Assembly (NCBI GenBank): GCA_030688605.1
Contig: JAUYJB010000051.1
Span: 304 to 64,303 of the forward strand
Direction of reading: 5' to 3'
From: Hyphomicrobiales bacterium
GTDB lineage: Bacteria > Pseudomonadota > Alphaproteobacteria > Rhizobiales > NORP267
Length of the DNA stretch: 64,000 nt
A model generated the notes under the pieces. It ran no database searches. It saw only the letters and a program-made list of their open reading frames with translations, and was not told the DNA's origin. The first letter of the stretch is position 1, and every line of letters begins with the position of its first letter. The position numbers and the translations under genes were made by a program. Of this stretch, positions 47,230 to 64,000 are shown piece by piece.

Positions 47230-47319
47230 GGAGGGGTGGCCGAGTGGTTGAAGGCGCACGCCTGGAACGCGTGTATACGGGACACCGTATCGAGGGTTCG
47301 AATCCCTCTCCCTCCGCCA
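47230..47319 (+). tRNA. tRNA-Ser (anticodon GGA)
   Basis: GGAGGGG acceptor pairs with TCCCTCC, followed by G-CCA. Anticodon stem CACGC/GCGTG with loop CTGGAAC (anticodon GGA). Long variable arm (TACGG..CCGTA) and T-arm GAGGG-TTCGAAT-CCCTC. Confidence 0.9.
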
Positions 47320-47529
47320 AATATCGCCAATAACAGCCAAAAATTCAATGATCGGCGGATCACCGGAATTCACCGGCCCGCCGGCATATCCTCAGGGAAA
47401 CCGCCAGCTTGCGGGCTTTAAGGCACCGGCACCCCCGAACCGTGCCTTGTGGGTCGAACTGTGGGTTCTAGACTGGACTAGGCCCGCCATCGAAGCTAGT
47501 GTCGCCCTCCCTCACCAGAGGATCGACCC

Positions 47530-48810
47530 ATGCCCAATGCCCCGCTCACGGCGGCGCAAGTCGCCGACCTAGCCGACCCCAACACCGAGGCCGCCGTGGG
47601 TGTGTTCCGCGTCGACCACGGCCTCTATGTCCAAGTGAAGGGGAACGGAGCCCGCTCCTGGCTCCTGAGGTACCAGATCAACGGGCGCGCGCGGCAAATG
47701 GGTTTGGGGGCGCTGCGCTTGATCTCCTTGACCGAGGCCAAGCGCCGGGCCCTGAAGGCCCAGCGGCTTGTGCTTGACGGCATCGATCCCATCGAGGCGA
47801 GGCGGGCCGAGAAGGCCGCTGCGGCCGAAGCGAAGAGGCAGCCCGTGCCGGCCATCGCGGCATCGCCTGCACGGTTGCCAACCGCCTCTTCAACAGCGGT
47901 GAGCACGCCGACGTTCGCCGAGTGCGCCGGCGAATACATCGCCGAACAGGAGCCAAGCTGGCGCAACGAAAAACACGTTGCGCAGTGGCGGCAGACGCTC
48001 CGCGATTATGTCCACCCGAAGATCGGCAAGGTGCCCGTCAGCGACATCACCTTGGATCACATCGTTGACGTGCTGAAGCCGATCTGGCGCCAGAAGAACG
48101 AAACAGCTCGACGGCTGCGCGGGCGCATAGAACGGATTCTCAACTGGGCCGAGGCGCACGGGCACCGCACCGGCGCGAACCCGGCTGCGTGGCGCGGGCC
48201 ACTCCCTGTCCTACTCGGTGGAGCAGCTCGCACGCGCAGCGTCCAGCATCACAAGGCAGTGCCCTGGCAGCAGATGCCTGCGTTTTGGAAGAAGCTGAAT
48301 CGGCTCGACAGCACGAGCGCCAAGGCGCTCCGGTTCCTAGTCTTGACGGCGGCCAGGACCGGCGAGGTCACCGGTGCTCGGTGGAGCGAGATCGACCTTG
48401 AAGCGAAGATCTGGACGTGCCCCGTGAGCCGGATGAAAGCGGGACGTGAACATCGGGTGCCCTTGAGCGACGCAGCGGTTGGGGTTCTGCGCTTTCTAGA
48501 TCGCGAAAATGATCTGGTGTTCCCCGGCGCACGGGCGGGGGCGTCCCTCTCGAACATGGCCATGCCCATGGTGTTGCGCGGGCTGCGGGACGACGGCGCA
48601 ACGGTACATGGGATGCGCTCCAGCTTTTCAGATTGGGCATCGGAGGCGACTAGCTTCCCTGCCGAGGTCCGCGAGATGGCGCTGGCGCACACGATCAGAA
48701 ATCGCGCGGAGGCCGCGTATCGGAGGGGTGACTTGCTGGAGAAGCGGCGGGAGTTGATGCGCGACTGGGCGCGGTACTTGGCGAACGCGTCGGCCGAGGA
48801 GCCCGATTGA
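47530..48810 (+). CDS. int: tyrosine-type site-specific integrase (P4-like, DUF4102 N-terminus)
   Basis: GNGARSWLLRYQINGRARQMGLG (DUF4102), catalytic HGMRSSFSDWA and AEAAYRRGDLLEKRRELM. It lies 210 nt downstream of tRNA-Ser, the classic island integration arrangement. Confidence 0.9.
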   Translation: MPNAPLTAAQVADLADPNTEAAVGVFRVDHGLYVQVKGNGARSWLLRYQINGRARQMGLGALRLISLTEAKRRALKAQRLVLDGIDPIEARRAEKAAAAEAKRQPVPAIAASPARLPTASSTAVSTPTFAECAGEYIAEQEPSWRNEKHVAQWRQTLRDYVHPKIGKVPVSDITLDHIVDVLKPIWRQKNETARRLRGRIERILNWAEAHGHRTGANPAAWRGPLPVLLGGAARTRSVQHHKAVPWQQMPAFWKKLNRLDSTSAKALRFLVLTAARTGEVTGARWSEIDLEAKIWTCPVSRMKAGREHRVPLSDAAVGVLRFLDRENDLVFPGARAGASLSNMAMPMVLRGLRDDGATVHGMRSSFSDWASEATSFPAEVREMALAHTIRNRAEAAYRRGDLLEKRRELMRDWARYLANASAEEPD

Positions 48811-49170
48811 GAGGGCACAGGGCGGCGCTGTGGCCGAATTACCTTATCAGCGGGCATCCGTGGCGGGTCTCCCATTGGTAATTAAACGGGCTAGGGAAAT
48901 AGTTGGTTGACGACTGTGTGATATTCATCCGTCAATAGCCGCACGGATGCTTGGGGACCGCGAGAGTTTTATTGAGTTCCGGCCCGATCCCCAAGCAAGC
49001 CGGAATACAGCGGTGGCGGTCGGAGTTTCTCCAACTGCTCTGGCCGCCACCGCACAAGTTGGAGATGTGTTCATGACATCCGTTGAGAGACCACAACGCC
49101 CACCGCATGAGCTTAACTCATGGCCGGCGACTGCCGAGATGCGCGACCCGTTTAGCGATGCGGTGAAATC

Positions 49171-49449
49171 ATGACTTCAGTCGAGAAACCCCCAAGCGAC
49201 TATAAGCAAATAGCCGATGTTTTGCGAGAGATCGGCGACAAGAATCGCTCGGCATTATTCGATCCGGAGAACCTGAAAGGTTTAGCTATCCTGAAGCTCA
49301 GAGCCCGCGCAGCATTCGAGGATTTGATGGATCACTGGCGAGGCCTTGGGTATGATGTTCGAGGGCTGCGTGGAGAGGTCAGCAAAACTGCGAAGGCCCT
49401 CGAACTAGACGACGGTCAGGACGATGACCCGGGTGCCGTCCGGGAAGTG
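49171..49449 (+). pseudogene. hypothetical island gene truncated by the IS256-family insertion
   Basis: The ORF (MTSVEKPPSDYKQIADVLREIGDK...DDDPGAVREV) reads straight into the IS left end at 49450. The remaining residues of the track ORF are IS-derived. Confidence 0.4.
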
Positions 49450-50845
49450 GTTGGAATTGAAAGTTGGCGTAGTCTCCGGGGTGTTCAACCTCGAATCATC
49501 CGGCCTTGTGGTGCCGGAAAGGAGACTACGCCATGACAAGGACTACCATGAATGCCGCTGCCGTTCATCCCGAGGCTGAGGCTACGGACTATCTTTTCGA
49601 CAACTGGTTTGATCCGATCGAAGCTGGCCTGCGCGAGCGGGTGCGCGGCTTCATCGAGACGATGCTCGAGAGCGAGCTGGATGCGGTGCTTGCCCGTCCC
49701 CGGTATGGCCGGCAGCCGGCGGCGCGCAGTGATGAGACCACCGGTGTCGCTGGCCACCGCCACGGCCGTCGAACGCGCCGGCTTACGGGAACCTTCGGCA
49801 CGACCGAGATCACGGTGCCGCGGGCACGCCTCGATGCCGGCGACAGCCAGACGGTGGAGTGGAAGAGCAAGGCCCTGCGCGCCTACCAGCGGCGCACGAT
49901 GGCCGCCGACGCGCTGATTGCCTCGGTCTATCTTGCCGGCACCAACACGCGCCGTGTGCGGCGGGCGCTTGCCGCGCTGTTCGGCGGCGCGATCGGCAAG
50001 GATGTCGTCAGCCGCACCTGGCGCAAGGTCAAGACCGACTGGGATGCCTGGAATGCCCGCCAGCTTACCGACGAGCCGATCGTGCGCCTGATCCTCGATG
50101 GCACGGTGGTTCGTGTCAGGCTCGACCGCAAGGCGACCTCGATCTCGCTGCTGGTGGTCATTGGCGTGCGCGCCGACGGCCAGAAGATCCTGCTCGCGGT
50201 CAAGAACATGGGTGGCGAGACGACTGAGGCCTGGCGGGCCATCCTCGACGATCTCGTCGGGCGCGGCCTGCGCCAGCCGGAGTTCCTCATCGTCGACGGC
50301 GCGCCGGGCCTGGACAAGGCGATTGTCGCCCTGTGGGACGGGGTACCGGTTCAAAGATGCACGGTTCACAAGCACAGGAACCTGCTCGCTCATGCTCCCG
50401 AGCGCCTGCACGAGGAGATCAGCGCCGATTACACCGACATGATCTACGCGGCCACGCCCGAGGAGATCGAGACCCGCCGCAAGGCCTTCCTGCGCAAATG
50501 GCGGCTCAAATGCCGCGCGGTGGCCGACAGCCTGGAGGAGGCCGGCGAGCGCCTCTTCGCCTTCACGCGGCTGCCGCCGAGCCAGTGGAAGAGCGCCAGG
50601 ACAACCAACGCGATCGAGCGTCTGCACGAGGAGTTCAAGCGGCGCATCAAGACCCAGACCGTTCTGCCTTCGGCGGAAACTGCGGCAATGCTGTTTTGGG
50701 CGCTGATGGCATCCGGCCAGATCTCGATGCGCAAGATCGACGGCTGGCAGACGCTTCCCGTCAAACCACTCGATCAGCAGATTGACCTCGCCGCATGAAC
50801 CGATAATCTCAACCTACCGGAGGCTGCTCCGCCGAATTCCAACAC
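49450..50845 (+). mobile_element. IS256-family insertion sequence (about 1.4 kb)
   Basis: Termini GTTGGAATT (49450-49458) and AATTCCAAC (50837-50845) are perfect inverted 9-mers. Further imperfect matches follow (..CTCCGG). They bracket a single mutator-type transposase gene. I saw no target-site duplication. Confidence 0.7.
49533..50798 (+). CDS. IS256 family (Mutator-type) transposase
   Basis: DYLFDNWFDPIEAGLRERVRGFIETMLESELDAVL...ISLLVVIGVRADGQKILLAV...FLIVDGAPGL...VQRCTVHKHRNLL...TTNAIERLHEEFKRRIKTQ is canonical for the IS256 family. Confidence 0.9.
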   Translation: MTRTTMNAAAVHPEAEATDYLFDNWFDPIEAGLRERVRGFIETMLESELDAVLARPRYGRQPAARSDETTGVAGHRHGRRTRRLTGTFGTTEITVPRARLDAGDSQTVEWKSKALRAYQRRTMAADALIASVYLAGTNTRRVRRALAALFGGAIGKDVVSRTWRKVKTDWDAWNARQLTDEPIVRLILDGTVVRVRLDRKATSISLLVVIGVRADGQKILLAVKNMGGETTEAWRAILDDLVGRGLRQPEFLIVDGAPGLDKAIVALWDGVPVQRCTVHKHRNLLAHAPERLHEEISADYTDMIYAATPEEIETRRKAFLRKWRLKCRAVADSLEEAGERLFAFTRLPPSQWKSARTTNAIERLHEEFKRRIKTQTVLPSAETAAMLFWALMASGQISMRKIDGWQTLPVKPLDQQIDLAA

Positions 50846-51165
50846 GATCTGCTACGGCACCCGCGGGAGGCGGGTTGCATTGATCGTATGAGAACGTATG
50901 AGTGTGGATCAGCACGAATGCGTGACCCCGGGCCAATCGCATCTAAGTCATTGAACATCTGAGGAAAGCGACGACAGCAGAGGGGTCCCGATCGGCGCCG
51001 ACGGGAACCCCGTGTCTCTTACCAATGTTGCCGTAATTTCAATGGCTTTACCTGAAAGCTGGGCGGGGTCCCGCTTCGGCGCTGTTTCACAAGTCTGACA
51101 GTGCCCGCCGCCGACGTTGACGATCAGTGAATGGGCCGATGCCAAACGTCGCGTAAGTTCCGAGG

Positions 51166-54100
51166 TCAGCGCCGCAGGCGTGCGGTGACGCGGCGTTCCA
51201 TTCCGCCTGTCGGGATGGCAATACAATCGCCGCCTACAGGGCGCCCATCTACCGCAAGCTCGACGCGGCCGGTGCCGATCCGTTCGGGATCCTCGATGGT
51301 GATAATCAGAATCCCGTCGGGGCCGTTGACCCTGACCTCCGCACCGCCCCAGTTCCTCGGGATTCGAGGGGCAATCCTGACTGAACCGCGCTGGAGGCTC
51401 AGGCCGAGAATGCCCTCGACGGCAAGTTGCCAGGTCCAGCCGGCCGCACCCGTGTACCAAGTCCAGCCGGCCTGACCGATCCCGGGTTCGGCGCCGCGCA
51501 CATCGGCGGCCAGGACATAGGGTTCGGCTCGGTAGAGTTCGGCGTCGGCGAGGCCGACGGTGTGACGGATCGGGTTGATCAGATCGAAGATCTCGTAGGC
51601 ACGGTCGCCATCGCCCAGCCGCGCATGGGCCAGGCCCAGCCAGGCCGCCGCATGGGTGTACTGGCCGCCATTTTCCCGCACACCTGGCGGATAGGCGCGA
51701 ATATAGCCCGGATCGCGCGGTGTCCGGTCGAACGGCGGCGTCAACAGACGCACCAGCCGCGCGTCATGATCGACGAGACGCTCGGTCGCAGCGGCGACGG
51801 CCGTGGCGGTTCGCTCGGGCGAAGGTCCGCCGGCCAATGCCGCCCAGGACTGGGATATGCTGTCGATCTGGCATTCGTCGGAATCTTTCGAGCCCCACGG
51901 CAGACCGTCATCCGCGAAGGCCCGCGCGTACCATGCGCCATCCCAGCCGGCTGCGTCGGCGGCCCGACGCAGATCATCGGCGCGCGCATTCCAGATGCCA
52001 TTGATATCGTTGCGCCCGAAGTCCTTGGCGAGGTCAGCGAAGGCGTCGGCGCAGACCGCGGCGAACCAGGCGAGCCACACGCTTTCGCCATGTCCCTCGT
52101 TGCCGACCCGGTCCATGCCGTCGTTCCAGTCGCCTGTGCCGATAAGTGGCAGCCCATGAGCGCCCATGGTGACGCCACGATCCAGCGCCCGCCGGCAATG
52201 CTCGAACAGGGTCGCGTGCTCCGCGCCAGCCTCGAACAAGGCGTAGCGGTCTTCCTCGTCGATCCCCAGCGGCGGGGCGGACAGAAATGGAACTTCCTCG
52301 GCAAGGATGGAGACGTCGCCGGTGGCGCCGACATATCGGCCGGTTGCATAGACGAGCCACAGCAAATCGTCCGAGCAGCGCGTTCGCACGCCTCTTCCCA
52401 AAGGCGGATGCCACCAGTGCAGCACGTCGCCCTCCTCGAACTGCCGCGACGCGCAGTCCAGAATATGCGCGCGCACACGCTGCGGCTCGGTGAAAAGAAG
52501 CGCCACCATGTCCTGAAGCTGGTCACGGAAACCGAAGGCACCGCCAGCCTGCTGAAACCCCGCCCGTGCGAATATGCGCGACGCAAAGATCTGGTTGATG
52601 AGCCAGCGGTTGACCATGAGGTCGAAAGCCGGATCCGGGGTGGTGACCCTGACGGCGTCGAGCCGCCGCTTCCAGGCGGCATCGCTTTCGGCGAGCGCCT
52701 TTCTTGCCTTCTCGACGTCACTCCAATGCAGGGCGAGGTGTGCCGCCTCGGCGAGGTCGCTCCCCTCGCCGAGCACGAAGACGACCTCCTCCGTCTCGCC
52801 GGAGGCCAGATCGATGTGGACCTGAAACGCCGCGCAGATATCGGCGATGCCGTCGAGCGCTCCATCGAGGTTCCAGGCCGTGAGGCCGGCCGGTCGGGCT
52901 GGATCACCCCGGAGGCCGAGAAACGCCGCGCGGTCACAGGTCAGGCTGTGCGGCGGTCGGCTCGCAGCAAGAAACGCCGTGCGGTCGCCGAATTCGGGAT
53001 TCCAGCCATTACGCGCGATCAGCGCCCGGCTTTCGACATCATAGCCGCAAACCAGATGCGGTCGCGCCATGCTGGACATCGAGCCAAGCAGCCATTCGGC
53101 ATAATAGGTCGCTGTAAACCGGCGGCCGCGGTCGCCTGGGTTGGACAGGGTGAGGAGCGCCAGCTTCACGGGGGCATCGGGTGGAACGAAGACTGTGAGA
53201 CGCTGCTCCAGTCCCTCCTCGTTGCGCTGCCAGGTTGTGGCGCCGGCACGGTGGCGGACCTGGCAGGGCGCATTGCCGCCCGCAGGCAGCGGGGTCAGCG
53301 TCCAGATGCCGGCGGTTTCCTCGTCGCGCAGGTAGAGCGCCTCTGTCTGCGGATCGACCACCGGGTCGTTCGACCATGGCGTGAGGCGATGCTCGCCGCT
53401 GTTGATGCACCAGCTGAAGCCCAGTCCCGCTTCCGAGACGATCGATCCAAAGCTCTCATTCGCCAGCACGTTGCACCAGGGCGCCGGTGTCACGCGTCCG
53501 CCTTCGAGATGGATCGCATAGTCTCCTTCTTCCGGGGTGAACCCGCCAAGGGAGTTGTCGAAGACGAGGTTTTCGGGGCGCAGGAGTGGCGGCGCGGTGC
53601 GCGAGGGCGTCGGTGGTCCGACCGGCTGGAAACGGGGCGGTGGGATGCGTCCCGGCTGCGGCGCGGTCATCGCCTCGGCGAGCGATCCCGCCGCTCCGTC
53701 GAGCGATACGCGCGCCGTAGCCTCAAGCGCCCGCCGCTCCGCCGCGCCGAACTGGTCCGCCGCCAGGAGATGAACGCCTCCCGGTCCGCCCAGACCCTCG
53801 GGCACGAAAGCTTCGCGAAGAGCGGCGGACAGCAAGTCGCGGATCGGCTCCTGATAGCCGGAAGCGCCCTCGCGCAGGATTACCAGGTCCGCGCGAAGGC
53901 CCCGCCTGAGCCACCACTGATGTGCCCGGACGATAATCGGGAGAAGCTGCGCATGTGCATCGTCGACAACCCGCACGAGGACGATCGGCAGATCCCCGGA
54001 CAGCCCCATGCCCCAGAGCTGCGGCTGGGCCGGAAGAGCCGTCTCCGACGCCGCCGCCAATACGAGCGGCGGCGTTCGGGGATAGACGAGATCGCGGCAC

Positions 54101-57100
54101 AGTGCCTGCGCCTCAGCCAGCGCGCGGGAATCGAGCCCGAGGCGTCGCGCTTCGAGCGCGGCAGATCGCAGCGCGTCTTCCATCGCCCAGTCGAGAGCCG
54201 GCGCGGTTGCGTAGCGCTCGGCGATATCAAGCGCCGTCTCGCGTGAACCTGCCGCAACCGTCACGAAATCGACCTGCGCGCGCGCCCCAGGCGCCAGGAT
54301 AACGCGCGCCCGCAAGGCCATGACCGGATCGAGCGTCCATCCGACGGCGCCATCCAGCGGGTCGATCGCGCCCGGCGGTCGTTCGGGGTCGCCGTGCCGG
54401 CCGAGAAACCTTCTGCGGTCTGTCTCGAAACCGGCTGGCGTCACCGCGGCATCGGTCGGCAGAAGGCCATGAATGAGGACCGGCGGTCGATCGGCAGGTC
54501 GTCTCGGGCGGCGCTTGAAGACAAGCGCGTTCTGGGCATCCAGCCGCTCGCTGTGGACGAAGAGCTTGCTGAAGGCGGGGTGCCGCTCATGGGCGGCCGC
54601 AGGCGCAAGCACGACCTCCGCATAGCTCGTCACATCAATCTCGCGCGCCCGGTCGCTGTCGTTGAAGATCGTGACGCGGCGGATCTCGACGTCGTCGCTC
54701 GGCGCAATCGCGATTTCGAGGTTTGTCGACAAACCTTCCACACGCTCGTGAAACTCGATCTTGTGGGCGTGGAAGTTCGTGTCCGACGACCGATTCGAGG
54801 CGTGTCCGCCGAGCGACCAGACCGCGCCGCTTTCGCGCTCGCTGACATAGATACGCGTGTCGCCGCCTCGGCTGACGTCGTCGCCAGTCCAGCGCGTGAG
54901 CGCCTGGTTGCGCCACCAGAGCGCCCCGCCTCCGGCGTCGCTGATCCAGGAGGCGAGGCTTCCATTGCCCATGACGTGGAGCTGAAGGTCCGGCTGGTTC
55001 GGTGCCGTCCAACCATGCAGCGCCGGCGTCGGTATACGTGCGAGGTCGGGCGCTGCGGTTTCGGCCTCTGTCGCCTGCTCGGGCGGGAACTCCCACGGGA
55101 CGCGCTCCTGCAGCAGCAGCTCGGTGGCGCGCATGCGCGGATCGCGGCCGAAACGCCTGATCAGGATGTTATCGTTCAGCGCGTTGCCGATCGCGGCGGA
55201 AATCATACCCTGGTGGTGGGCCATATAGGCGCGCACGGGCGTGAAGCCGCCTTTTGCCGGCCGCCGGTCCGGCGTGAAATCGGCTGCCTCGAAGAATCCG
55301 TACCGCTCACGCAGGCCGAGCTTGTCCAGCCGACGGAGGTTGGATGTGGCGAGGGTCGGCGCGACGGCCAGTGCCAGCGCGCTTGCATAGGGCGCGACCA
55401 CATAGTCCCCGGACAGGCCGCGCTTGAGGCCCAGCCCGGGAACCCCGAATGCCTGGTACTGGTAGCGATGCGCGGCATCCCGGGCGGCATAGCCGGATTC
55501 CGAAACACCCCAGGGCAGGCCGAGTTTCTCCCCATAGCGCCGTTGCACGGACACCGCCGCACGTTCGCTCTGACCGAGCAGCCGCCCTGCCTCGCTCGGC
55601 AACAGCAGAGCCGGCATGAGATATTCGAACATCGACCCGTTCCACGACAGCGTCGTGAGCGCACCGCCCGCCTGGGTGATCGGGCGCCCGAGGTGAAACC
55701 AATGTTCGACGGGCACGTCGCGCTTGGCGATCGCGAAATAGCTGGCCAGCCGCGCCTCGCTCGCCAGCAGGTCGTAGTGGTGCTGGTCGAGCTGGTCGGA
55801 GCCGAGATTGTAGCCGATGAAGAAGGTTCTGGTCTCCGCGTCATAGAGCGGGTGGAAATCCATGCCGAAGGCGCGTGCCTCCGCCCGGACCGCGCATTGC
55901 TCGAGGCTCTCGCGGAGATTGCCGCAAGCGGCCTCTCCCCGGTCGAGTGCCGCAATCACCTCCGAAACCCAACGTCGGCTCTCTGCATCGACCGGAGCAA
56001 ATCCCGAAAGCGCGCTGCGCGCCTGGCCGATCCTGTCGGCTATCCGGGCGAGGGGGGTATCGGGTCGGGGCAGCGCCTCGAGCAGCGCCGACACGCCTTC
56101 AAGCCCGGCCGGCGGCGTATCGGTCAGGGCACACCAGGGTTCCAGCGCGTCAAGATCCCGCCGCATATTCATCAAATGGTGATCGGCACGCTCCAGCCAG
56201 AGATAGACCTCGTGCGGATCGGCCTCGACGTCGGTCGCGGGCGCTTTGGCGACGAGCACGTGAAGCTGCCGCCAGTCTTCCGTGCCGATCTCCACCAGTG
56301 CGGACCGCCAGTCTTGCGGCGCGCTCCGGATTGCGGGGAGCCGGCCGAGAATCGCATCGAGCTGATCGCAAATCACCCTTCGATCGGTCTCGGGCAGTGC
56401 GGATACGGCCTCACGCAAAAGATGGAGTGCATCCTCAAAGCCACTCCACAGCGTTGGAGACAGCACTGGACCCCTCGCGGCCTCCCTGCAACCTTCGCGC
56501 AGCGTTAGCAGGCTTACGGCCAGATTGCCGCTGTCGACCGTCGAGACGTAGCGCGGCTCGAGCGACTTGAGTGTCTTCGTGTCGAACCAGTTCAGCGTGT
56601 GGCCGGCATAGCTCTCCAACCGACCGAGCGAGTCCAGCGAGGCGGTCATCCGCGCGGCAAGGTCACGGAGGCCTATGTGGCCCAAATCCCACGCCGTCAG
56701 CGCCGACAGGAAGAGCATCCCGACATTGGTCGGGGAGGAGCGGTGCGCGATTTCCTCGTGCGGGCTCGCCTGATAGCTGTCAGGCGGCAACCAGTTGTCG
56801 TCGGGGCCGGCAAACGTCTCGAAGAACAGCCAGGTGCGTCGCGCGACCAGGCGCAGGTAGAGCCGGTCTTCCGCCCGAAGGGTCTCCGACACCGCCTGCC
56901 TCTTCCTGCTGATGAGCCGCGCGATCTCGGGCGAGGCGAGCCACAAGAGCAGCAGCGGCGCGGCCCCGGGCAGGGCGGCGGGTTTCAGCAAAGCGAGGAT
57001 CAGTGCGATCGCGACCGCAAGCATGGGCGCGGCGGCCATTTCGCGCCAGGTTCCGGACCGAGTTTGCGAATCCTCCGCCGCGGAATGGGCTGCCGACGTC

Positions 57101-59637
57101 CATTCCAGCAGACGGCGGCGCGAGACATACACGCGCCACGAAGTGCGCGCGACCGCTTCGCTCGCTACCGCGGCCTTGTATGCCAGGAAGATGATCGCCA
57201 GCAGCCAGCGTCCGCCATGATCGGCCAGCTGGCGCAGAATGCTGCGCGCGGCCCCCCGCCTGCGTCCGCGCGCCAGGCTGGTGACGAGGTCGGTAAAGAG
57301 ATATGCGCCCGGTCCGACCACCGTCAGCGCCGTCCAGATCAGGGCTTGTCCCGGCAGCGCCAGCCATCCCGCAACCGCAAATGCGACAAGTGCCGGGGGG
57401 ATGAGGCTGCGGCGCAGATTGTCGAACATTTTCCATCGGTCGAGCGCCGAAAGCCGGTTGGGCGCGCACTTCTCGTCGCGGACTGGCGCCGTTCCGCCCA
57501 GCCAAGGCAGAAGCTGCCAGTCGCCCCGGATCCAGCGAAAGGCGCGGCGCGCATAGGCGAGATAGTTGGCGGGGAAATCCTCGTAGAAGACGATGTCGCT
57601 GGCGAGTGCCGCGCGGCCGTGAAGTCCCTCGAACAAATCGTGGCTGACGATCGCGTTCTCCGGTACGCGGCCGTGCAGGCATTTGTGGAACGCGACGACG
57701 TCGAAGGCGCCCTTGCCGGTGAATATCCCCTCGCCGAACAGGTCCTGATAGACGTCCGAGACCGCCCGGCTGTAGATGTCGATGGCGGTGTCTCCGGTAT
57801 AGAGGCGGGTGAACAGAGAGCGGTCGCCGGCATCAGGCGAAATCTCGACCCTGGGCTGGATGAAGGTGTAGCCGCGGCGCGGTCTTGCCGTCGCCGGGTC
57901 GAATTCGACCCGGTTCAGCGGATGGGCCAGCGTCCCCAGGAGCCGGTTGATGCCGTTGGGCTGCGCCTTGGTGTCGGCGTCGAGCGTGACGACGAAGCGC
58001 GCGCGTCGCAGCGCGTCGACATCGCCCTCGCGCAAGGCAAAGGCGTCGGGCAGGTGGCCGAGTATCAGGCCGGTGAGTTCTTCGAGCTTGCCGCGCTTGC
58101 GCTCCCAGCCCATCCAGCAGCCTTCGGCGGCATTCCAGCGGCGCCCCCGGTGGAGGAGCACGAACGGTGCATGGTCGGCGTAGCGCGCGTTGAGGCGGCG
58201 CACGCCTGCCACTAGAGCTGCCTCGATCGCCGCATCTTCCGGCATACGCTCCCTATCCGCGTCCGCGAGGTCGCTCAGCAGCGCCATGCGGATGAGCGGA
58301 TCGGGGTTCGACAGCCAATGCGTTTCCAGCCGCTCGACGAGCGGTGCAACTTCGGCCTGTTTGCGCAGGATCACCGGCATCACCAGCGCCGCATCGCAGC
58401 CGGCGCCCAGACCGTGCTCGACGTCGAGCTTCGGCAGCACCCGAGGGGGGACGAGCCTGGTGACGATCCAGTCCGTGAAAGTGACGCTAATGATCATGGC
58501 GGGTGTGAGCGACAGCACAAGCCCCACCACCCACGCCGCCGCGCCGGCGTCGTAGATGGCGAGCAGCAGCGCAGGCACGATCAGTGCGGCAATGGCGAAG
58601 CCCGCCAGCGCCCCGGCATAGCTCCTGCCGGGATGAGCCATGATCCAGCGGCGCGGTGTGGCGGCCCACTTGGCGCGAAAGCCGACCTTCTGCTCGAGCT
58701 CCGCCCGGCCCTCCGCGACCAGCCAGCATCCGACATGCCCGAAGCGCCGTGCGCCGGCATGGGCGCGCGTCAGTTTCAGCGCGGCCTCGGCGACTTCCCA
58801 CTCGGACGCAGGCGCGTCGTCCGCGATTTCCTCGACGGCCTTGCGGTATCGGTCTCGCGTGTCGAAATCCATGGCCGAATAAACGCCGGCGGGATCGTCC
58901 TGCAGGATCGCTTCGACACGGCTCACCTGCTCGAAGAACGCCTTCCAGGAGGTGTTCGACACCGCCATGAGGGCCGAAATCGCGCGTGAGACGCCTTCGG
59001 TCGGGTCAAGCGTCTCGTGACGCGTCAATCGGGGCGTCGGTTCGAATGGCGGGGTAAGTTCGGGCAAGAGTTCGGAAAACGACTGAACGAGCGCCTCCAG
59101 GCAGGCGAGGCGAAGCATCGCCGGAAACGCCCAAAGCTCGGCAATCGTCAGCGGCCCGTCCTGCTGATACGCCTTGACGAACTCCACCGCGCCGGCGATG
59201 CTGACCTGCATATGCGCGACGTCGAGCATGCCTTGCGCCAGCGCCATGACGCGCGGGATTCCCCGATATTCGGGCGCGGCGAGCCGCGGCAATCGACGGT
59301 AGAAGGCGGTGGGTAGATCCTCGCGCACCTGTCGAATGGCGCGACGCACCTGAAACTCGTTGTCGAGCAGCCACTCCGAGGCCTTGGCTGCATGCGGCGG
59401 CGGCTCGGTGCAATGGCGGCGTGCGCGATCCAGCCAGGGAAAGATGGCGGAGAGTCTCCGCCAGACGGGGGCCGGCTCGGGCAGGCCCCTGTCGATGTCA
59501 TGACGCGACCGGATCGCGACGGCGGCGACCGCAAACCCGCCGTCCGGCGCGATGGCGTCTTGCACTGGCGCGGAAAGTGTCACATCAGCGCCCGGCTCGG
59601 CAGCCTCACGGCCATGGCTTCGCCTGATCTCCTGCAA
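51166..59637 (-). CDS. ndvB: cyclic beta-1,2-glucan synthase (NdvB/ChvB/Cgs type; GT84 + GH94 domains)
   Basis: 2823-aa ORF, the size typical of Cgs/NdvB. N-terminal EWLLDNEFQVRRAIRQV, six TM segments, a glycosyltransferase core with FVVTLDADT, and a C-terminal GH94 phosphorylase-like region with GTGDWNDGMDRVG. An alternative GTG start at 59583 overlaps the usp stop (GTGA). Confidence 0.9.
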   Translation of the reverse strand: MQEIRRSHGREAAEPGADVTLSAPVQDAIAPDGGFAVAAVAIRSRHDIDRGLPEPAPVWRRLSAIFPWLDRARRHCTEPPPHAAKASEWLLDNEFQVRRAIRQVREDLPTAFYRRLPRLAAPEYRGIPRVMALAQGMLDVAHMQVSIAGAVEFVKAYQQDGPLTIAELWAFPAMLRLACLEALVQSFSELLPELTPPFEPTPRLTRHETLDPTEGVSRAISALMAVSNTSWKAFFEQVSRVEAILQDDPAGVYSAMDFDTRDRYRKAVEEIADDAPASEWEVAEAALKLTRAHAGARRFGHVGCWLVAEGRAELEQKVGFRAKWAATPRRWIMAHPGRSYAGALAGFAIAALIVPALLLAIYDAGAAAWVVGLVLSLTPAMIISVTFTDWIVTRLVPPRVLPKLDVEHGLGAGCDAALVMPVILRKQAEVAPLVERLETHWLSNPDPLIRMALLSDLADADRERMPEDAAIEAALVAGVRRLNARYADHAPFVLLHRGRRWNAAEGCWMGWERKRGKLEELTGLILGHLPDAFALREGDVDALRRARFVVTLDADTKAQPNGINRLLGTLAHPLNRVEFDPATARPRRGYTFIQPRVEISPDAGDRSLFTRLYTGDTAIDIYSRAVSDVYQDLFGEGIFTGKGAFDVVAFHKCLHGRVPENAIVSHDLFEGLHGRAALASDIVFYEDFPANYLAYARRAFRWIRGDWQLLPWLGGTAPVRDEKCAPNRLSALDRWKMFDNLRRSLIPPALVAFAVAGWLALPGQALIWTALTVVGPGAYLFTDLVTSLARGRRRGAARSILRQLADHGGRWLLAIIFLAYKAAVASEAVARTSWRVYVSRRRLLEWTSAAHSAAEDSQTRSGTWREMAAAPMLAVAIALILALLKPAALPGAAPLLLLWLASPEIARLISRKRQAVSETLRAEDRLYLRLVARRTWLFFETFAGPDDNWLPPDSYQASPHEEIAHRSSPTNVGMLFLSALTAWDLGHIGLRDLAARMTASLDSLGRLESYAGHTLNWFDTKTLKSLEPRYVSTVDSGNLAVSLLTLREGCREAARGPVLSPTLWSGFEDALHLLREAVSALPETDRRVICDQLDAILGRLPAIRSAPQDWRSALVEIGTEDWRQLHVLVAKAPATDVEADPHEVYLWLERADHHLMNMRRDLDALEPWCALTDTPPAGLEGVSALLEALPRPDTPLARIADRIGQARSALSGFAPVDAESRRWVSEVIAALDRGEAACGNLRESLEQCAVRAEARAFGMDFHPLYDAETRTFFIGYNLGSDQLDQHHYDLLASEARLASYFAIAKRDVPVEHWFHLGRPITQAGGALTTLSWNGSMFEYLMPALLLPSEAGRLLGQSERAAVSVQRRYGEKLGLPWGVSESGYAARDAAHRYQYQAFGVPGLGLKRGLSGDYVVAPYASALALAVAPTLATSNLRRLDKLGLRERYGFFEAADFTPDRRPAKGGFTPVRAYMAHHQGMISAAIGNALNDNILIRRFGRDPRMRATELLLQERVPWEFPPEQATEAETAAPDLARIPTPALHGWTAPNQPDLQLHVMGNGSLASWISDAGGGALWWRNQALTRWTGDDVSRGGDTRIYVSERESGAVWSLGGHASNRSSDTNFHAHKIEFHERVEGLSTNLEIAIAPSDDVEIRRVTIFNDSDRAREIDVTSYAEVVLAPAAAHERHPAFSKLFVHSERLDAQNALVFKRRPRRPADRPPVLIHGLLPTDAAVTPAGFETDRRRFLGRHGDPERPPGAIDPLDGAVGWTLDPVMALRARVILAPGARAQVDFVTVAAGSRETALDIAERYATAPALDWAMEDALRSAALEARRLGLDSRALAEAQALCRDLVYPRTPPLVLAAASETALPAQPQLWGMGLSGDLPIVLVRVVDDAHAQLLPIIVRAHQWWLRRGLRADLVILREGASGYQEPIRDLLSAALREAFVPEGLGGPGGVHLLAADQFGAAERRALEATARVSLDGAAGSLAEAMTAPQPGRIPPPRFQPVGPPTPSRTAPPLLRPENLVFDNSLGGFTPEEGDYAIHLEGGRVTPAPWCNVLANESFGSIVSEAGLGFSWCINSGEHRLTPWSNDPVVDPQTEALYLRDEETAGIWTLTPLPAGGNAPCQVRHRAGATTWQRNEEGLEQRLTVFVPPDAPVKLALLTLSNPGDRGRRFTATYYAEWLLGSMSSMARPHLVCGYDVESRALIARNGWNPEFGDRTAFLAASRPPHSLTCDRAAFLGLRGDPARPAGLTAWNLDGALDGIADICAAFQVHIDLASGETEEVVFVLGEGSDLAEAAHLALHWSDVEKARKALAESDAAWKRRLDAVRVTTPDPAFDLMVNRWLINQIFASRIFARAGFQQAGGAFGFRDQLQDMVALLFTEPQRVRAHILDCASRQFEEGDVLHWWHPPLGRGVRTRCSDDLLWLVYATGRYVGATGDVSILAEEVPFLSAPPLGIDEEDRYALFEAGAEHATLFEHCRRALDRGVTMGAHGLPLIGTGDWNDGMDRVGNEGHGESVWLAWFAAVCADAFADLAKDFGRNDINGIWNARADDLRRAADAAGWDGAWYARAFADDGLPWGSKDSDECQIDSISQSWAALAGGPSPERTATAVAAATERLVDHDARLVRLLTPPFDRTPRDPGYIRAYPPGVRENGGQYTHAAAWLGLAHARLGDGDRAYEIFDLINPIRHTVGLADAELYRAEPYVLAADVRGAEPGIGQAGWTWYTGAAGWTWQLAVEGILGLSLQRGSVRIAPRIPRNWGGAEVRVNGPDGILIITIEDPERIGTGRVELAVDGRPVGGDCIAIPTGGMERRVTARLRR

Positions 59638-60605
59638 ACCATCGGCGGACTTCCCTCATGTCCCCGCACGAGCAGGACAGGGATGTTCATGTGGTTGATC
59701 AGATAGTCGGCGACACTGCCCACGGACATGTCCGGATGTCCGCTCTGGCCGGTGGAGGAAAGAACCATGAGATCGGCGTGCTCTTCCACTGCCGCGCGCG
59801 CGAGCGCATGGCGCGGATCGCCGCTCGGCAATACCCGTATTCTGGTCGCCGGGGTGGGGGGCAACCGGGATCGGACCCGCTTCAAATGCCGCTCGGCGGC
59901 GCGCTCGTTGCGACGGCGCAGCCGGTCGCGCAACATGATGGCCTCAGCTTCGAGTGGATCTGCCTCGGTGAGATCGATATTCGGGGCCGCATGGACGAGC
60001 ACCATCTCGGCGCCGTGGGCGGCCGCAATTCCCAAGCCGAGCGGCAAGGCGCATTCCGATCGCGGAGAGCCGTCGAGCGGTATCAGCACCCTGCGATAGC
60101 GTATCGGAGCGTCACCGACCTGTGGCGACGGGACGAGCAGTACCGAACCGTTGACGACCTCCGCCACCCGACGCGCGGTGCCGCCCAATCCCACGAAGGG
60201 CCAGTTGCCCTCGCCACCTCCGCCCAGCACGGTCAGGTCCACCGCATTGTCGCGCGCCCAGGCGCAGATGCGTTCGGCGGCCGGTCCGTCGACGACCACG
60301 GCATCGGCTTGAAGGTCGCCAAAGCGCGACGCGCGCTCGCGCAAGTCAGCCTCCACATCGCGGTGGCGCAGCGTCCACTCCACCGGGTCCATCGGCACCT
60401 GAACCGCCGGCGTCTCGAGAACGCGCATGACGGTCATTTGTGCATCGGCCGCGATGGCCACCGCGGCCGCGTGCGCCAACACGGCATCCGCAAAGGGAGA
60501 CGCATCGACACAGACCAGGACATGGCGAAGGATTTGGTGCTCGGCTTGCTGGCATGGCGGCGGAGCCCCCGTCTTGTTATGCTTCAGGAGCTCAGGCTCA
60601 GACAT
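59580..60605 (-). CDS. universal stress protein, tandem UspA domains
   Basis: Two Usp modules: ILRHVLVCVDASPFADAVLAHAA...VVDGPAAERICAWARDNAVDLTVLG and YRRVLIPLDGSPRSECAL...GDPRHALARAAVEEHADLMVLSSTGQSG...IPVLLVR. Confidence 0.85.
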   Translation of the reverse strand: MSEPELLKHNKTGAPPPCQQAEHQILRHVLVCVDASPFADAVLAHAAAVAIAADAQMTVMRVLETPAVQVPMDPVEWTLRHRDVEADLRERASRFGDLQADAVVVDGPAAERICAWARDNAVDLTVLGGGGEGNWPFVGLGGTARRVAEVVNGSVLLVPSPQVGDAPIRYRRVLIPLDGSPRSECALPLGLGIAAAHGAEMVLVHAAPNIDLTEADPLEAEAIMLRDRLRRRNERAAERHLKRVRSRLPPTPATRIRVLPSGDPRHALARAAVEEHADLMVLSSTGQSGHPDMSVGSVADYLINHMNIPVLLVRGHEGSPPMVCRRSGEAMAVRLPSRALM

Positions 60606-60921
60606 GGGACACTCCCTGCCAGATGATGCGACAGTCCACGATCAAGCGAATGCCTCGGTCCCGCTCCACGGAATTAACGGTCTGACGCCGCCTAGGTTCC
60701 ATCGCTCAACAAAGAGCGGCAGTCTCCGGACATCGCCGGCGCCTTGCCGTTGCGCACGGGTTTCTCTAAAACCGCCGATTTTACTTCACGTTGACCAACT
60801 GGATTTGGAGTTGATCCAAACATATGGCGGCGACTATCGTGGCTCCACCTTCTCAAGAGTTGGAGCCTCCGGCAAAACCCGACAGCGTTCAAACCATATC
60901 GCAAACTAGGTTGAAGCGGCA

Positions 60922-61133
60922 GCCGTGTCCAGCGGGCAGCAGGAAGCGTCGTGATCGGTCCAGTGCCGGTTCGCTGGGCGGTGCTTGAGCCGGCGCGTCC
61001 ACAGCGCGTAGGTCATTGATGCGGTGCCCAACGGGAGGCCTGGATGGCCGCTGCTGGCGTACTGCACCATGTCCACCGATAGAAAGCGAAGCGTGTTGAT
61101 GCATTGCTGGTCGAGTGGGTCGGATATGAGGGT
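60922..61133 (-). pseudogene. transketolase N-terminal fragment (frameshifted and truncated)
   Basis: The minus strand reads ..DPLDQQCINTLRFLSVDMVQYASSGHPGLPLGTASMTYALWTRRLKHRPANRHW, which is the transketolase TPP-binding signature. It then shifts frame to DRSRRFLLPAGHG, and homology stops there. I saw no canonical start. Confidence 0.65.
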
Positions 61134-61145
61134 TCCTTCAATCAG

Positions 61146-61403
61146 TTAAGGGTTGGCCAGCGCCGCGTCGACGAGGCTCTGCGCTTCTTGCAGGATACGT
61201 TGGAGATGTTCTTTGCCGTTGAAACTTTCCGCGTAGATCTTGTAGATCGCCTCGGTGCCGGATGGTCGTGCGGCAAACCAGCCGCTGGCGGCGATCACCT
61301 TGATGCCGCCGATAGCCACTTTGTTGCCGGGCGCGTGATCGAAAACTCGTTCGATCCTCTCGCCGGCCAACCGGTCGCTGTGCAATTGGTCGGGCGACAG
61401 CTT
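61146..61403 (-). pseudogene. phosphoglucomutase C-terminal fragment (5' part removed at the IS5 junction)
   Basis: KLSPDQLHSDRLAGERIERVFDHAPGNKVAIGGIKVIAASGWFAARPSGTEAIYKIYAESFNGKEHLQRILQEAQSLV aligns from memory with the last ~85 residues of alpha-D-phosphoglucomutase (GGLKV..GWFAARPSGTE..YKIYAESF). The upstream frame closes at the IS end. Confidence 0.7.
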
Positions 61404-61424
61404 AGAGTCCGTTTGAGAATTGCA

Positions 61425-62222
61425 TCAATGGCCGATCCTTCGCAGCAGCAGGCTTCCCATGGCGACGTGGATCATGGCTTCGGAGACGTCGATGCGCTGC
61501 TCGTAGTCGCGCACGAGGCGACGCCAGCGGGTCATCCAGCCGAAGGTCCGCTCGACCACCCAGCGGCGCGGCAGCACCTTGAAGCCAGGTTCGGCGTCGA
61601 TGCGGCGGATGACCTCGATGACGAAGTCGAGGAAGGCGGCCTTGTCCATGAGTTGCGTCCTGTCATAGGCCCCGTCGGCGAACAGGTGCTTGAGCCACGG
61701 CCATCGCTTGCGGATGGCATCGAGGATCATCTGCGCGCCGGCGCTGTCGGAGAGGTCCGCCGGGGTGAGATTGACCATCAGCAGGCGACCATCGGTATCC
61801 ACCGCCACATGCCGCTTGCGCCCGACCGTCTTCTTGGCGGCGTCGTAGCCGCGCGGCGCTCCCGGCGCCGGCGCCTTGACCGTCTGGCTGTCGACAACAC
61901 CGGCGCTCGGGCTCGCCTCGCGTCCCTGCCGCTCGCGGTCCATCATCAGCGCGATGTCGTGGATGGTGCGGAACAGCATCAGCCGCACAAAGCGGCGGAA
62001 CCACCAGTAGACCGTCTGCCACGGCGGAAAATCCTTCGGCAGCATGCGCCAGCCGCCGCCCGAGCGGGTCATATAGCGGATGGCGTTCAGCACCTCGCGC
62101 AGATCCACCTCCCGCTTGCGCCCTCGCTTCGCTGGATTGGGCAGCAGCGGCGCAATCCGCTCCCATTCTTCATCGGTGAGATCGGTCGGATAACGCTTCG
62201 TCTTCCGCTCGATCGCGGCCAT
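61425..62222 (-). CDS. IS5 family transposase (DUF4096 + DDE_Tnp_1)
   Basis: RYPTDLTDEEWERIAPLLP...GRKREVDLREVLNAIRYMTRSGGGWRMLPKDFPPWQTVYWWFRRF...VVDSQTVK...GRKRHVAVDTDGRLL...FADGAYD...RWVVERTFGWM..RRL.RDYE. The ATG at 62222 is preferred over 62249. Confidence 0.85.
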   Translation of the reverse strand: MAAIERKTKRYPTDLTDEEWERIAPLLPNPAKRGRKREVDLREVLNAIRYMTRSGGGWRMLPKDFPPWQTVYWWFRRFVRLMLFRTIHDIALMMDRERQGREASPSAGVVDSQTVKAPAPGAPRGYDAAKKTVGRKRHVAVDTDGRLLMVNLTPADLSDSAGAQMILDAIRKRWPWLKHLFADGAYDRTQLMDKAAFLDFVIEVIRRIDAEPGFKVLPRRWVVERTFGWMTRWRRLVRDYEQRIDVSEAMIHVAMGSLLLRRIGH

Positions 62223-62282
62223 GCGGCCTCGCGTCTCTCGTGTCCACATCCAGAGTGTGAATCACGAATGCCGCGCCAAGGG

Positions 62283-62310
62283 AATCTGGAGGGTTCAATC
62301 TGGAGGGTTC
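62283..62310. repeat. perfect tandem duplication of a 14-mer (AATCTGGAGGGTTC x2)
   Basis: Positions 62283-62296 and 62297-62310 are identical. The repeat sits just outside the IS5 transposase start, so it could be an IS end or a junction artefact. Confidence 0.6.
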
Positions 62311-62652
62311 TGTGAGGTCGCGCGGCGGAAGCGGCGGGCATACGGGGGCGCGACCTCATTGAAGCCGGATTGAGCGAAGCCGCGGAATGGTTGGCGCGCT
62401 ATGGGGATTGTAGGTTGGCCGGCGGCCCCGAGATTGCGGAGCGGACGTGCTGCATGGCGCCTCTGATGGGTGGCACGAGAGCGGGACCGTCGGCGGCAAG
62501 CCAGCGATACGGAACAGAAGCGGCCAACCTGGTTCCGATGCCGCCGTGCTGCGGCCGGGCCGCAGCGGCGCTGACGTCAGAGACAACGCCTTCCTGTCCT
62601 GCGGGGATGGCGTCCGGTATCGACAAGCCGGTGGTGTCGCGGTTCGGGTTGC

Positions 62653-63831
62653 TCATGAGGTATCGTGCCAGAAGGATGGGCGGCGCGGTTGTGGCCGCGG
62701 CAGGGTGACGAGAGTGATCATTGCGCCGCCACAGCAGGAGCAGCGATCGGGTCTGTGCAACGGAGCAGTATCCTGGGCTTGTTCGGCGGTCGGTTCTGCA
62801 GACGCTACCTCCAGCAGCCCGCGGCAGAGCGCCAGCTTCGCCGCGCGATGGCCGTTGGCGAGGAAGCCGTAGTGGCGGATGCGATGGAAGCCATCCGGCA
62901 GGGTGTGCAGGAGAAAGCGTCGAATGAACTCGTGTGCGTTGAGGGTCATGACCTTCGACTTGCTGTGGTGGCGGTAGTCCTTCCAGCGGAAGGCGACTTC
63001 ATCGTCTGTCATGCTGATCAAACGCGCATTGGCGATGGCAACCCGATGCGTATATCGGCCGAGATAGGCCAGGACTTGCGCGGGTCCGCCGAAGGGTGGC
63101 TTGGCATAGACTGCCCATTCGACGCCACAAAGCTCGCGGAGCCGGCGGGAGAATGCGGCGGGCTCGGCGAGGCCAGCGAGCGCGCCGAAGAAGCCGAGTT
63201 CACCCGCTTCGAAGTCGGCGCGCAGTTGGTCGAGGAACAGCCGGCGAAAGAGGCGCGAGAGCACGCGAACCGGCAGGAAGAATCCTGGTCGGCAGCTGAC
63301 CCAGCGGGTGCCGTCGAGCGATGGGCCGCCGCCCGGCACGACGCAATGGACATGGGGATGGTGGTGCAGCGTCTGACCCCAGGTATGGAGCACGGCGACG
63401 AATCCGATCTCGGCGCCGAGATGCTTGGGATCGGCGGCGATGGTGTGCAGCGTCTCGGCGGCGGCTCGGAACAGAATGGCGTAGACCGTCTCCTTGTTCT
63501 GGAACGCAATCTCGGCGACCGGAGCCGGCAGGGTGAAGACGACGTGGAAATACGGCACCGGCAGCAACTCGGCCGCTCGCGCCGCAAGCCAATCGGCGCG
63601 GGCCGATCCCTGGCACTTGGGGCAGTGCCGGTTGCGACAGGAGTTATAAGCGCAGCGAACCAATCCACAATCCGAGCAAGCCTCGATGTGGCCACCCAGT
63701 TCGGCGGTTCGGCACAGCTCGATGGCGCTCATGACCCGACGTTCGACGCGGCTCAGATGACCGTCATGCACCCGTCGATAAGCATCGCCGTGGTGGCGGA
63801 AGACATCCGCCACTTCCAGACCGGCCGGCAT
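62653..63831 (-). CDS. IS91 family (HUH/Y2 rolling-circle) transposase
   Basis: Zn-finger CSDCGLVRCAYNSCRNRHCPKCQ, YFHVVFTLP, the HUH motif in LHTWGQTLHHHPHVHCVVPGG, and the C-terminal YLGRYTHRVAIAN...RIRHYGFL. Confidence 0.9.
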   Translation of the reverse strand: MPAGLEVADVFRHHGDAYRRVHDGHLSRVERRVMSAIELCRTAELGGHIEACSDCGLVRCAYNSCRNRHCPKCQGSARADWLAARAAELLPVPYFHVVFTLPAPVAEIAFQNKETVYAILFRAAAETLHTIAADPKHLGAEIGFVAVLHTWGQTLHHHPHVHCVVPGGGPSLDGTRWVSCRPGFFLPVRVLSRLFRRLFLDQLRADFEAGELGFFGALAGLAEPAAFSRRLRELCGVEWAVYAKPPFGGPAQVLAYLGRYTHRVAIANARLISMTDDEVAFRWKDYRHHSKSKVMTLNAHEFIRRFLLHTLPDGFHRIRHYGFLANGHRAAKLALCRGLLEVASAEPTAEQAQDTAPLHRPDRCSCCGGAMITLVTLPRPQPRRPSFWHDTS

Positions 63832-63843
63832 GGCGCGGTCCGA

Positions 63844-64000
63844 TCAGGCGGGCGGCACCACCTCCAAGGTCAGCCGGTCGAGCGGGCTCTCGGTCCGCCG
63901 GATCAACCCGTTCGAGACCCGCGTGTAGCGCGCCGTGCTCGACAGATTACTGTGGCCCAGGAGCACCTGGATGATGCGGATATCGGTGCCGCTCTCCAGG
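63844..64000 (-). CDS. tyrosine recombinase/integrase, C-terminal end only (runs off the right edge)
   Basis: The minus strand reads ..LESGTDIRIIQVLLGHSNLSSTARYTRVSNGLIRRTESPLDRLTLEVVPPA*, which contains the LLGH...RY catalytic box. The stop is 12 nt upstream of the IS91 transposase start. I recall this pairing from IS91-related elements. Confidence 0.75.
   Translation of the reverse strand, partial: LESGTDIRIIQVLLGHSNLSSTARYTRVSNGLIRRTESPLDRLTLEVVPPA

Follow-up and report, generated by a model that had tools for sequence, protein, structure and literature searches.

A complete synthase gene for cyclic beta-1,2-glucan, overlapped by a tandem Usp gene, in a probable tRNA-Ser island of a Hyphomicrobiales bacterium

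Introduction

To our knowledge, work on cyclic beta-1,2-glucan has treated it almost exclusively as a factor in the interaction of Rhizobiaceae and Brucella with their hosts, and always together with its exporter. In the cyclic glucan synthase (Cgs) of Agrobacterium tumefaciens, the defined residues include the glycosyltransferase (GT) aspartates D624, D626 and D739, the autoglycosylated primer tyrosine Y694 and the GH94 aspartates D2393 and D2528 (PMC10901819); in the GH189 cyclase of TiCGS, E1442 is the nucleophile and E1356 the acid/base, along with E1400 and H1536/H1537 (PMC10834661). Here we describe a locus in the draft genome of a Hyphomicrobiales bacterium in which the gene for such an enzyme, cgs, is overlapped by a gene for a tandem universal stress protein (Usp), and lies on the 3′ side of a tRNA-Ser gene and an integrase gene, among insertion sequences (IS). 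The stretch analysed (hereafter, the window) has 64,000 nucleotides and corresponds to positions 304-64303 of a contig of 65,137 bp (C93; JAUYJB010000051.1). An earlier note on this DNA, made from the sequence alone, had proposed a tRNA-Ser-linked island that brought in, by horizontal acquisition or as an extra copy, a symbiosis or virulence determinant. What the locus presents is a complete synthase of another lineage that passes among distant free-living bacteria without an exporter, in a compact pair with the gene of a stress protein.

The host genome (G000) has 3.77 Mb in 178 contigs and 64.7% G+C, and was scored as 100% complete with 3.2% contamination; contig ends in the bin show graph overlaps of 137-141 nt. 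Its RlmN protein is nearest to those of Hyphomicrobium-like Rhizobiales and is 66-75% identical to those of the five genomes of the same family that were compared; 35 genomes of the same order were used for cgs, and 151 genomes of the order for homologues of the integrase. The available data on the host point to a free-living environmental bacterium of the soil or sediment type.

Results

An intact synthase coupled to a tandem Usp gene

The cgs open reading frame (ORF; 51166-59583, reverse strand) is uninterrupted. Counted from a TTG codon at 59637 it would have the 2823 residues stated in the earlier note, but all close homologues begin where the GTG at 59583 stands, which is most likely the real start; the synthase is complete, as had been claimed, with a probable length of 2805 aa. 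The protein carries the Pfam domains Glyco_trans_2_3 (residues 549-774), Glycoamylase (PF10091; 1287-1496) and GH94 (2051-2745), has hydrophobic segments in its N-terminal third and, in a phmmer search, matched the solved full-length A. tumefaciens Cgs (8rf0/8rf9, cryo-electron microscopy) with 1692 bits and a full-length alignment. Residues D535, D537 and D649 and the putative primer tyrosine Y604 align with the three GT aspartates and the primer tyrosine of the A. tumefaciens enzyme, D2354 and D2488 with its phosphorylase aspartates, and E1362, E1276, E1320 and H1456/H1457 with E1442, E1356, E1400 and H1536/H1537 of TiCGS, a match that was controlled for chain offset by the 44/42/94 spacing. 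All 11 of the 11 experimentally defined residues examined are conserved. Judged from its sequence, Cgs is a complete enzyme of three predicted activities, namely a GT84 polymerase primed by a tyrosine, a cyclase of family GH189 and a phosphorylase of family GH94 that controls chain length, and we infer that it would make cyclic beta-1,2-glucan from UDP-glucose.

Upstream of cgs, and on the same strand, lies a gene for a 341-aa tandem Usp (59580-60605), with two Pfam Usp domains (E=5e-41), the TGA stop codon of which overlaps the GTG start of cgs by 4 bp (GTGA). The ATP-binding motif G-2x-G-9x-G(S/T) is loosely matched in the first domain and shortened in the second. The earlier note omitted this translationally coupled gene, which is the sole conserved partner of cgs. 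The identical arrangement, with a 341-aa Usp and a 4-bp overlap, occurs at the loci L099-L104; the Cgs of loci of this type is 89% identical in a JGI metagenome contig, 85% in Chelatococcus sp. GW1, 83% in Aquibaculum sediminis and 79% in Marinobacter antarcticus. All neighbours except usp and cgs differ among these closest loci and, as far as the sequences compared go, the two genes are the only pair conserved in the alpha- and gammaproteobacterial relatives.

The association extends well beyond these loci. A tandem Usp gene ends 0-360 nt before cgs in 38 of the 68 loci with enough upstream sequence, among them loci of Chloroflexota, Planctomycetota, Myxococcota and Sphingomonadales, and a FastTree phylogeny sets all the sampled Usp-linked loci to one side of a branch whose local (SH-like) support is 100. 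No homologue of the window Usp was found in the five genomes of the same order that carry a canonical cgs. The pair is also borne by conjugative plasmids, pSF45436d of Sinorhizobium fredii CCBAU 45436 (L132, 10914-20395) and pLA4 of Novosphingobium pentaromativorans US6-1 (L133, 10941-20408); S. fredii would hold this Usp-type synthase besides any canonical ndvB. In Chelatococcus sp. GW1 (L101, ALIQ01000030.1) the pair sits inside a sugar-phosphate and stress cluster, with genes for acetate kinase, phosphoketolase (XFP), a His-phosphatase and pgm upstream, and with a P-type cation ATPase gene and a stand-alone PF10091 (beta-1,2-glucanase-like) gene downstream. No account of a Usp-cgs operon was found in the literature searched, the coverage of which was incomplete.

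A single copy of another lineage, without ChvA

A tblastn search of the genome revealed no second cgs; the gene is single in a genome scored as complete, which does not support the proposal of an extra copy. Nor is this the ChvB/NdvB type of the Rhizobiaceae: cgs is present in 5 of the 35 genomes of the same order, and the proteins of these copies are 41-43% identical to the window Cgs, which is part of a clade, coupled to Usp and lacking ChvA, that occurs in free-living bacteria from the sea, from sediment and from wastewater. Since the carriers of the Usp type are free-living, a part in stress or osmotic adaptation is more defensible than the role in symbiosis or virulence suggested earlier.

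The earlier note had remarked that no exporter gene is adjacent, and the profile search agrees for the whole genome, in which no ChvA/NdvA equivalog was found (best TIGR01192 score 309 bits, against a cut-off of 585). The same holds for five other carriers of the Usp-type pair (TIGR01192 at about 290 bits), so that the missing exporter is a feature of the clade and not of this locus alone. In three canonical genomes of the same order, TIGR01192 scored 964 bits (G031, where the hit adjoins cgs) and 657 bits (G036), both taken as positive controls, and 529 bits. Without ChvA/NdvA/Cgt, we infer, the glucan would stay in the cytoplasm or leave the cell by another route.

The tRNA-Ser gene, the integrase and the left border

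The tRNA-Ser(GGA) gene (47230-47319, forward strand), the sole tRNA reported by ARAGORN and scored at 57 bits by the Rfam tRNA model, is followed after 210 nt by a gene for a tyrosine integrase of the P4 type (47530-48810, forward strand; 426 aa, apparently intact) with the Pfam domains Arm-DNA-bind_3, Phage_int_M and Phage_integrase, the order of genes that the earlier note had reported. Inspection of its sequence showed the catalytic residues R276, H360, R363, H386 and Y397 all to be present. Homologues of the integrase (about 50% identity) are patchily distributed, in 29 of the 151 genomes of the order, and three of them adjoin tRNA-Ser genes.

The closest relative available for this site, a metagenome contig (L115) of about 80% DNA identity, matches the window collinearly from 43513 up to 47319, where the tRNA has its final base. 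Beyond that base the two are unrelated, other genes follow the tRNA in L115, and the L115 sequence 3′ of the tRNA has no counterpart in the host genome. No relative with the gene order of the window but free of an integrase and IS elements at this tRNA was encountered. Among the genomes of the family, linkage of rlmN to tRNA-Ser(GGA) is kept only in G001 (C60/L106, 3659-3864), a contig of which stops 115 nt past the tRNA, a hint of a repeat or of another island there; three further metagenomic relatives (L116-L118) break off before or at the tRNA. As a separate observation, L115 holds at 4881-4930, 3′ of its tRNA-Ser, a sequence of 31-49 nt that matches the host contigs C64, C103 and C163 and the ends of C161, C106, C96 and C87; by its distribution it is probably a dispersed repeat resembling a repetitive extragenic palindrome (REP) or a miniature inverted-repeat transposable element (MITE).

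Contig join and a putative attR

C93 terminates in a repeat, and its last 141 nt are also the ends of contigs C151 and C27. The two parts of an interrupted pgm gene decide which of these continues it. A tblastn search with the Chelatococcus PGM located residues 465-550 in the window (61149-61404, reverse strand; 89.5% identity), in a piece that ends at a TTA target duplication (61402-61404), and residues 242-466 on C151. Between them lies an IS5-ended composite element of 3,429 bp (61405-64833, reverse strand, ending 833 bases past the window), with 18-bp inverted repeats, GAGTCCGTTTGAGAATTG and GAGCCCGTTTGAGAATGG, and the TTA duplication. In silico excision of this element together with one TTA yields a continuous pgm for residues 242-550, 91% identical to the Chelatococcus PGM; the restored reading frame indicates that C93 runs on into the reverse complement of C151. 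C27 was rejected as the continuation: it lacks pgm and holds two-component genes and others.

The earlier note had found no repeat of the tRNA 3′ end and had placed the distal border beyond the window; the border does lie beyond it, and the repeat exists, on the adjoining contig. No repeat of the tRNA 3′ end of at least 15 nt is found anywhere in the genome, but a short-word search recovered the final 14 nt of the tRNA, CTCTCCCTCCGCCA (47306-47319, forward strand; the putative attL), as an exact, directly oriented copy on C151, at 1565-1578 of the reverse complement. This copy lies 18,939 nt downstream of the tRNA, 1.4 kb beyond the end of C93 and 45 nt past an ISL3 transposase fragment that removes codons 1-241 of pgm. 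A composition-based estimate puts the chance expectation of the 14-mer in 71 kb at about 1e-3, and the 3.77-Mb genome has three copies, in the tRNA, on C151 and on a small contig, C146. The copy on C151 is followed by G, which in both relatives also follows the intact tRNA, whereas A follows attL, and ordinary ABC-transporter genes lie beyond. With moderate confidence, we regard the 14-nt repeat on C151 as the candidate attR. The copy on C146 (about 1439-1480, reverse strand) is embedded in a degenerate stretch resembling a T arm, GGTTCGAGCC...CTCTCCCTCCGCCAG, perhaps what is left of the att site of a different element targeting tRNA-Ser.

The cargo is of foreign affinity

None of the five genomes of the same family carries cgs (0/5), and the window copy is accordingly not a syntenically conserved gene of the family. 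The window shares instead 75-88% DNA identity over 9.4-10.3 kb with loci of Chelatococcus, Aquibaculum, Marinobacter and others. Its pgm′-tkt′-usp-cgs block is 84-91% identical at the DNA level to Chelatococcus sp. GW1; this homology goes on upstream of usp, across the spacer and a transketolase remnant, tkt′, into pgm, and halts exactly at the IS5 end, and the pgm fragment of C151 is 91% DNA-identical to Chelatococcus as well. The tkt′ remnant (60909-61145, reverse strand; about 60 N-terminal codons, Pfam Transketolase_N, E=1.4e-16) is partly common to L099 and L100 and only 43% identical to the host tkt on C162. The IS-disrupted gene and the metabolic remnants of the earlier note are thereby identified, the former as pgm and the latter as pgm′ and this transketolase fragment.

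Cgs is also much closer to the copies of distant bacteria than RlmN, taken as a housekeeping protein, is to theirs. The identities are 79% for Cgs and 48% for RlmN in Marinobacter antarcticus, 78% and 51% in a gammaproteobacterial metagenome-assembled genome, 83% and 62% in Aquibaculum sediminis, and 76% and 68% in Aurantimonas sp. In the FastTree phylogeny the window Cgs falls in a clade of 13 members that mixes three alphaproteobacterial orders, Rhizobiales and Rhodospirillales among them, with Gammaproteobacteria, at a local (SH-like) support of 100. The DNA identity to distant carriers, the tree and the border at the tRNA together support the horizontal acquisition and mobile context that had been proposed. 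Composition, which the earlier note had offered as a check, was uninformative, the GC3 and the codon bias showing no deviation from the host range; either the acquisition is not recent or the donor was of similar composition. Host-like composition is no argument against transfer from similarly G+C-rich donors, and it leaves the event undated.

Mobile elements and decay inside the island

Between the integrase and cgs, a forward-strand ORF (49171-49430) with no Pfam or NCBIfam match is truncated by the left end of an IS256-family element, the inverted repeat of which begins at 49431. This element (49431-50863, forward strand) has imperfect inverted repeats of 28-29 bp and no target-site duplication, and its two flanks differ from each other; this junction is a rearrangement and not a simple insertion. 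Its transposase (49506-50798, forward strand; Transposase_mut) scores 269 bits with the NCBIfam IS256 model, against a cut-off of 150.

A MITE-like repeat of 195 bp (50903-51098) follows, between IS256 and the cgs stop codon, at the point where homology to the 89%-identical locus stops. Its termini, TGTGGATCAGC... and ...GCTGTTTCACA, are imperfect inverted repeats, and copies that are 86-94% identical are present in the same bin (C150:6266-6461, C63:25247-25439 and C50:3743-3951), the one on C50 containing a (TTGAC)n microsatellite. An Rfam scan of 46.5-64 kb returned the tRNA only, with no match to the MITE-like repeat and no riboswitch before usp.

The IS5-ended element carries, all on the reverse strand, an IS5 transposase gene (61425-62249; NCBIfam 241 bits, cut-off 110), an IS91 (Y2) transposase gene (62653-63831; 442 bits, cut-off 125) and a gene for a XerC/D-like tyrosine recombinase (63847-64704), assigned to its family by profile, which reaches 704 bases past the window end. 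The three transposase families and the second tyrosine recombinase named in the earlier note are thus all present, each of the transposases exceeding the NCBIfam equivalog cut-off by which the families were assigned. Both ends of the element are identical to ends of the contigs C71, C49, C27 and C151 and, because these ends recur, the element is multi-copy. The 3.4-kb unit can be read in two ways, as one mobile unit or as IS91 nested in IS5. In all, mobile elements now make up about 7 kb of the island and cargo about 11 kb, and within the cargo only usp and cgs are intact. No excisionase or transfer genes were recognised in it, and so heavily eroded an island is probably immobile now.

Discussion

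The observations are probably best explained by an island of about 18.9 kb, borne by the integrase and inserted at tRNA-Ser, whose cargo was the pgm-usp-cgs block and which was later eroded by IS elements. The element would have entered tRNA-Ser(GGA) at its 3′ end through recombination by the P4-type integrase, leaving attL and the 14-nt attR, with a foreign pgm-(tkt′)-usp-cgs block as the cargo on arrival. Later scrambling would have followed: IS256 may have united unrelated flanks and the MITE-like repeat inserted behind cgs, the IS5-ended element with IS91 and the recombinase would have split pgm at codon 465/466, and the ISL3 fragment would have taken out pgm codons 1-241, while usp and cgs survived intact.

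Several observations weigh against this account, in which the arrival of this particular cargo by means of the integrase is a proposed step. The IS256 element lacks a target duplication, and the integrase half and the cargo half were possibly united secondarily. The attR has only 14 nt, and from the copy on C146 it is clear that the genome has such fragments in other places too. For the genes past attR, the five family genomes offer no close orthologue, and that the core genome resumes there is unproven. The comparison of the site rests on L115, at about 80% identity, and not on a genome of the same genus, and the host genome itself is a draft of many contigs, probably a metagenome bin. In the other genomes with the pair, usp and cgs occur without an integrase or att site. 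Finally, cgs, usp and the integrase gene lie within the host range in codon usage and GC3.

Some of these points suit another history, in which the foreign block was not cargo of the integrase but came separately, for example from a plasmid, through recombination mediated by IS256 or ISL3 or through composite transposition, into a recombination hot spot beside an older integrase remnant, the 14-nt repeat belonging to that older element or being a coincidence. The flanks of IS256, which has inverted repeats but no target duplication, were not contiguous to begin with, and this, the truncation of the block by IS at both ends, the absence of an integrase near usp-cgs in five other genomes, the presence of the pair on conjugative plasmids and the additional tRNA-Ser 3′ fragment on C146 all fit. 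The whole block, however, is enclosed by the tRNA and the one direct repeat of its 3′ end nearby, which is placed exactly where the IS debris ends, and a repeat of this length is hardly expected by chance in 71 kb. We consider a separate arrival less likely than the integrase-borne island, though it is the main rival. Much less probable is that cgs is an old resident of the lineage, lost in the sampled relatives, around which the integrase and the IS elements gathered later. Codon usage and GC3 indistinguishable from those of the host and the single copy would agree with residence, and the five family genomes are distant enough (by RlmN) for losses to be possible; against it, the high identity to Chelatococcus extends to the non-coding spacer and the gene remnants, Cgs is much closer to gammaproteobacterial copies than the housekeeping protein is, its clade mixes classes, homology to the nearest relative stops at the tRNA, and tkt′ is unlike the host tkt. 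An artefact of assembly or binning, that is, a contig made chimeric through a shared IS, with the cgs block from another organism of the metagenome, would suit the fragmented draft, its contamination, the graph overlaps at contig ends and the position of IS256 between cgs and the part with core genes and integrase, yet it is the least probable account, as IS256 is single-copy in the bin (its other match is partial and 79% identical) and offers no repeat for a mis-join, the MITE-like repeat and the IS5-ended element have further copies on contigs of the same bin, and the composition matches the host.

The integrase-borne island is itself ordinary in kind; its cargo is unusual, and intact. The Usp-coupled Cgs is a little-noticed, widely exchanged variant of the synthase and the only cyclic beta-1,2-glucan gene of its host, and the database names "glucoamylase family" and "GH36-type hydrolase" make the module easy to overlook. 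Cgs would be translated in step with the tandem Usp, which may gate or stabilise the synthase under stress, and a plausible function for the pair is stress-gated synthesis of cyclic beta-1,2-glucan. It is possible, and we put it forward tentatively, that the Usp-coupled Cgs is not just a diverged ChvB but a self-contained module of two genes that is functionally distinct, the island being a captured example in transit. If so, the module would form a deep clade over Proteobacteria, Chloroflexota, Planctomycetota and Myxococcota that moves between classes and on conjugative plasmids; it would work without ChvA/Cgt, its glucan acting in the cytoplasm or exiting by another route, and Usp would be a stress or energy switch. 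The locus raises the questions of the destination of the glucan, of the role of Usp and of how far glucan-based stress protection reaches through gene transfer.

Comparison with known systems

The island resembles other tRNA-linked islands with P4-type integrases, such as the symbiosis and pathogenicity islands of tRNA genes, in having the integrase directly 3′ of the tRNA and a distal direct repeat of the tRNA 3′ end, in the foreign affinity of its cargo, in its accumulated IS elements and in the occurrence of integrase relatives at other tRNA-Ser genes. It differs in its small size (18.9 kb), in its short repeat (14 nt) and in the lack of a compositional deviation; a deviant composition is a common, though not strictly defining, feature of islands.

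The synthase is like that of A. tumefaciens in size, domain order, hydrophobic N-terminal third and all residues tested. It is distant in sequence from the canonical copies of its own order, and the carriers of these lack the Usp gene that here precedes and overlaps cgs. The context differs as well, being mobile and in a free-living environmental host whose genome has no ChvA/NdvA/Cgt exporter. The pairs of pSF45436d and pLA4 have the same two-gene order and orientation as that of the window, with an 8.3-kb synthase gene annotated only as "glucoamylase family protein" and neighbourhoods in which stress genes abound, namely more Usp genes and P-type ATPases; their Usp proteins, however, are just 38-43% identical to that of the window, about 140-180 bp separate the two genes in place of the overlap, and the pairs are borne by plasmids instead of a tRNA island.

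A described counterpart for the coupling itself is TeaD, a Usp that acts with the ectoine transporter TeaABC of Halomonas elongata in a Usp-regulated osmoadaptation system. By analogy, a Usp gene co-transcribed with an osmoadaptation machine could tune the activity of that machine to the energy or stress state of the cell. The partner of TeaD is a transporter, whereas that of the window Usp is a biosynthetic enzyme, and the window protein differs from TeaD in its two domains and in an ATP-binding motif that is only loosely kept.

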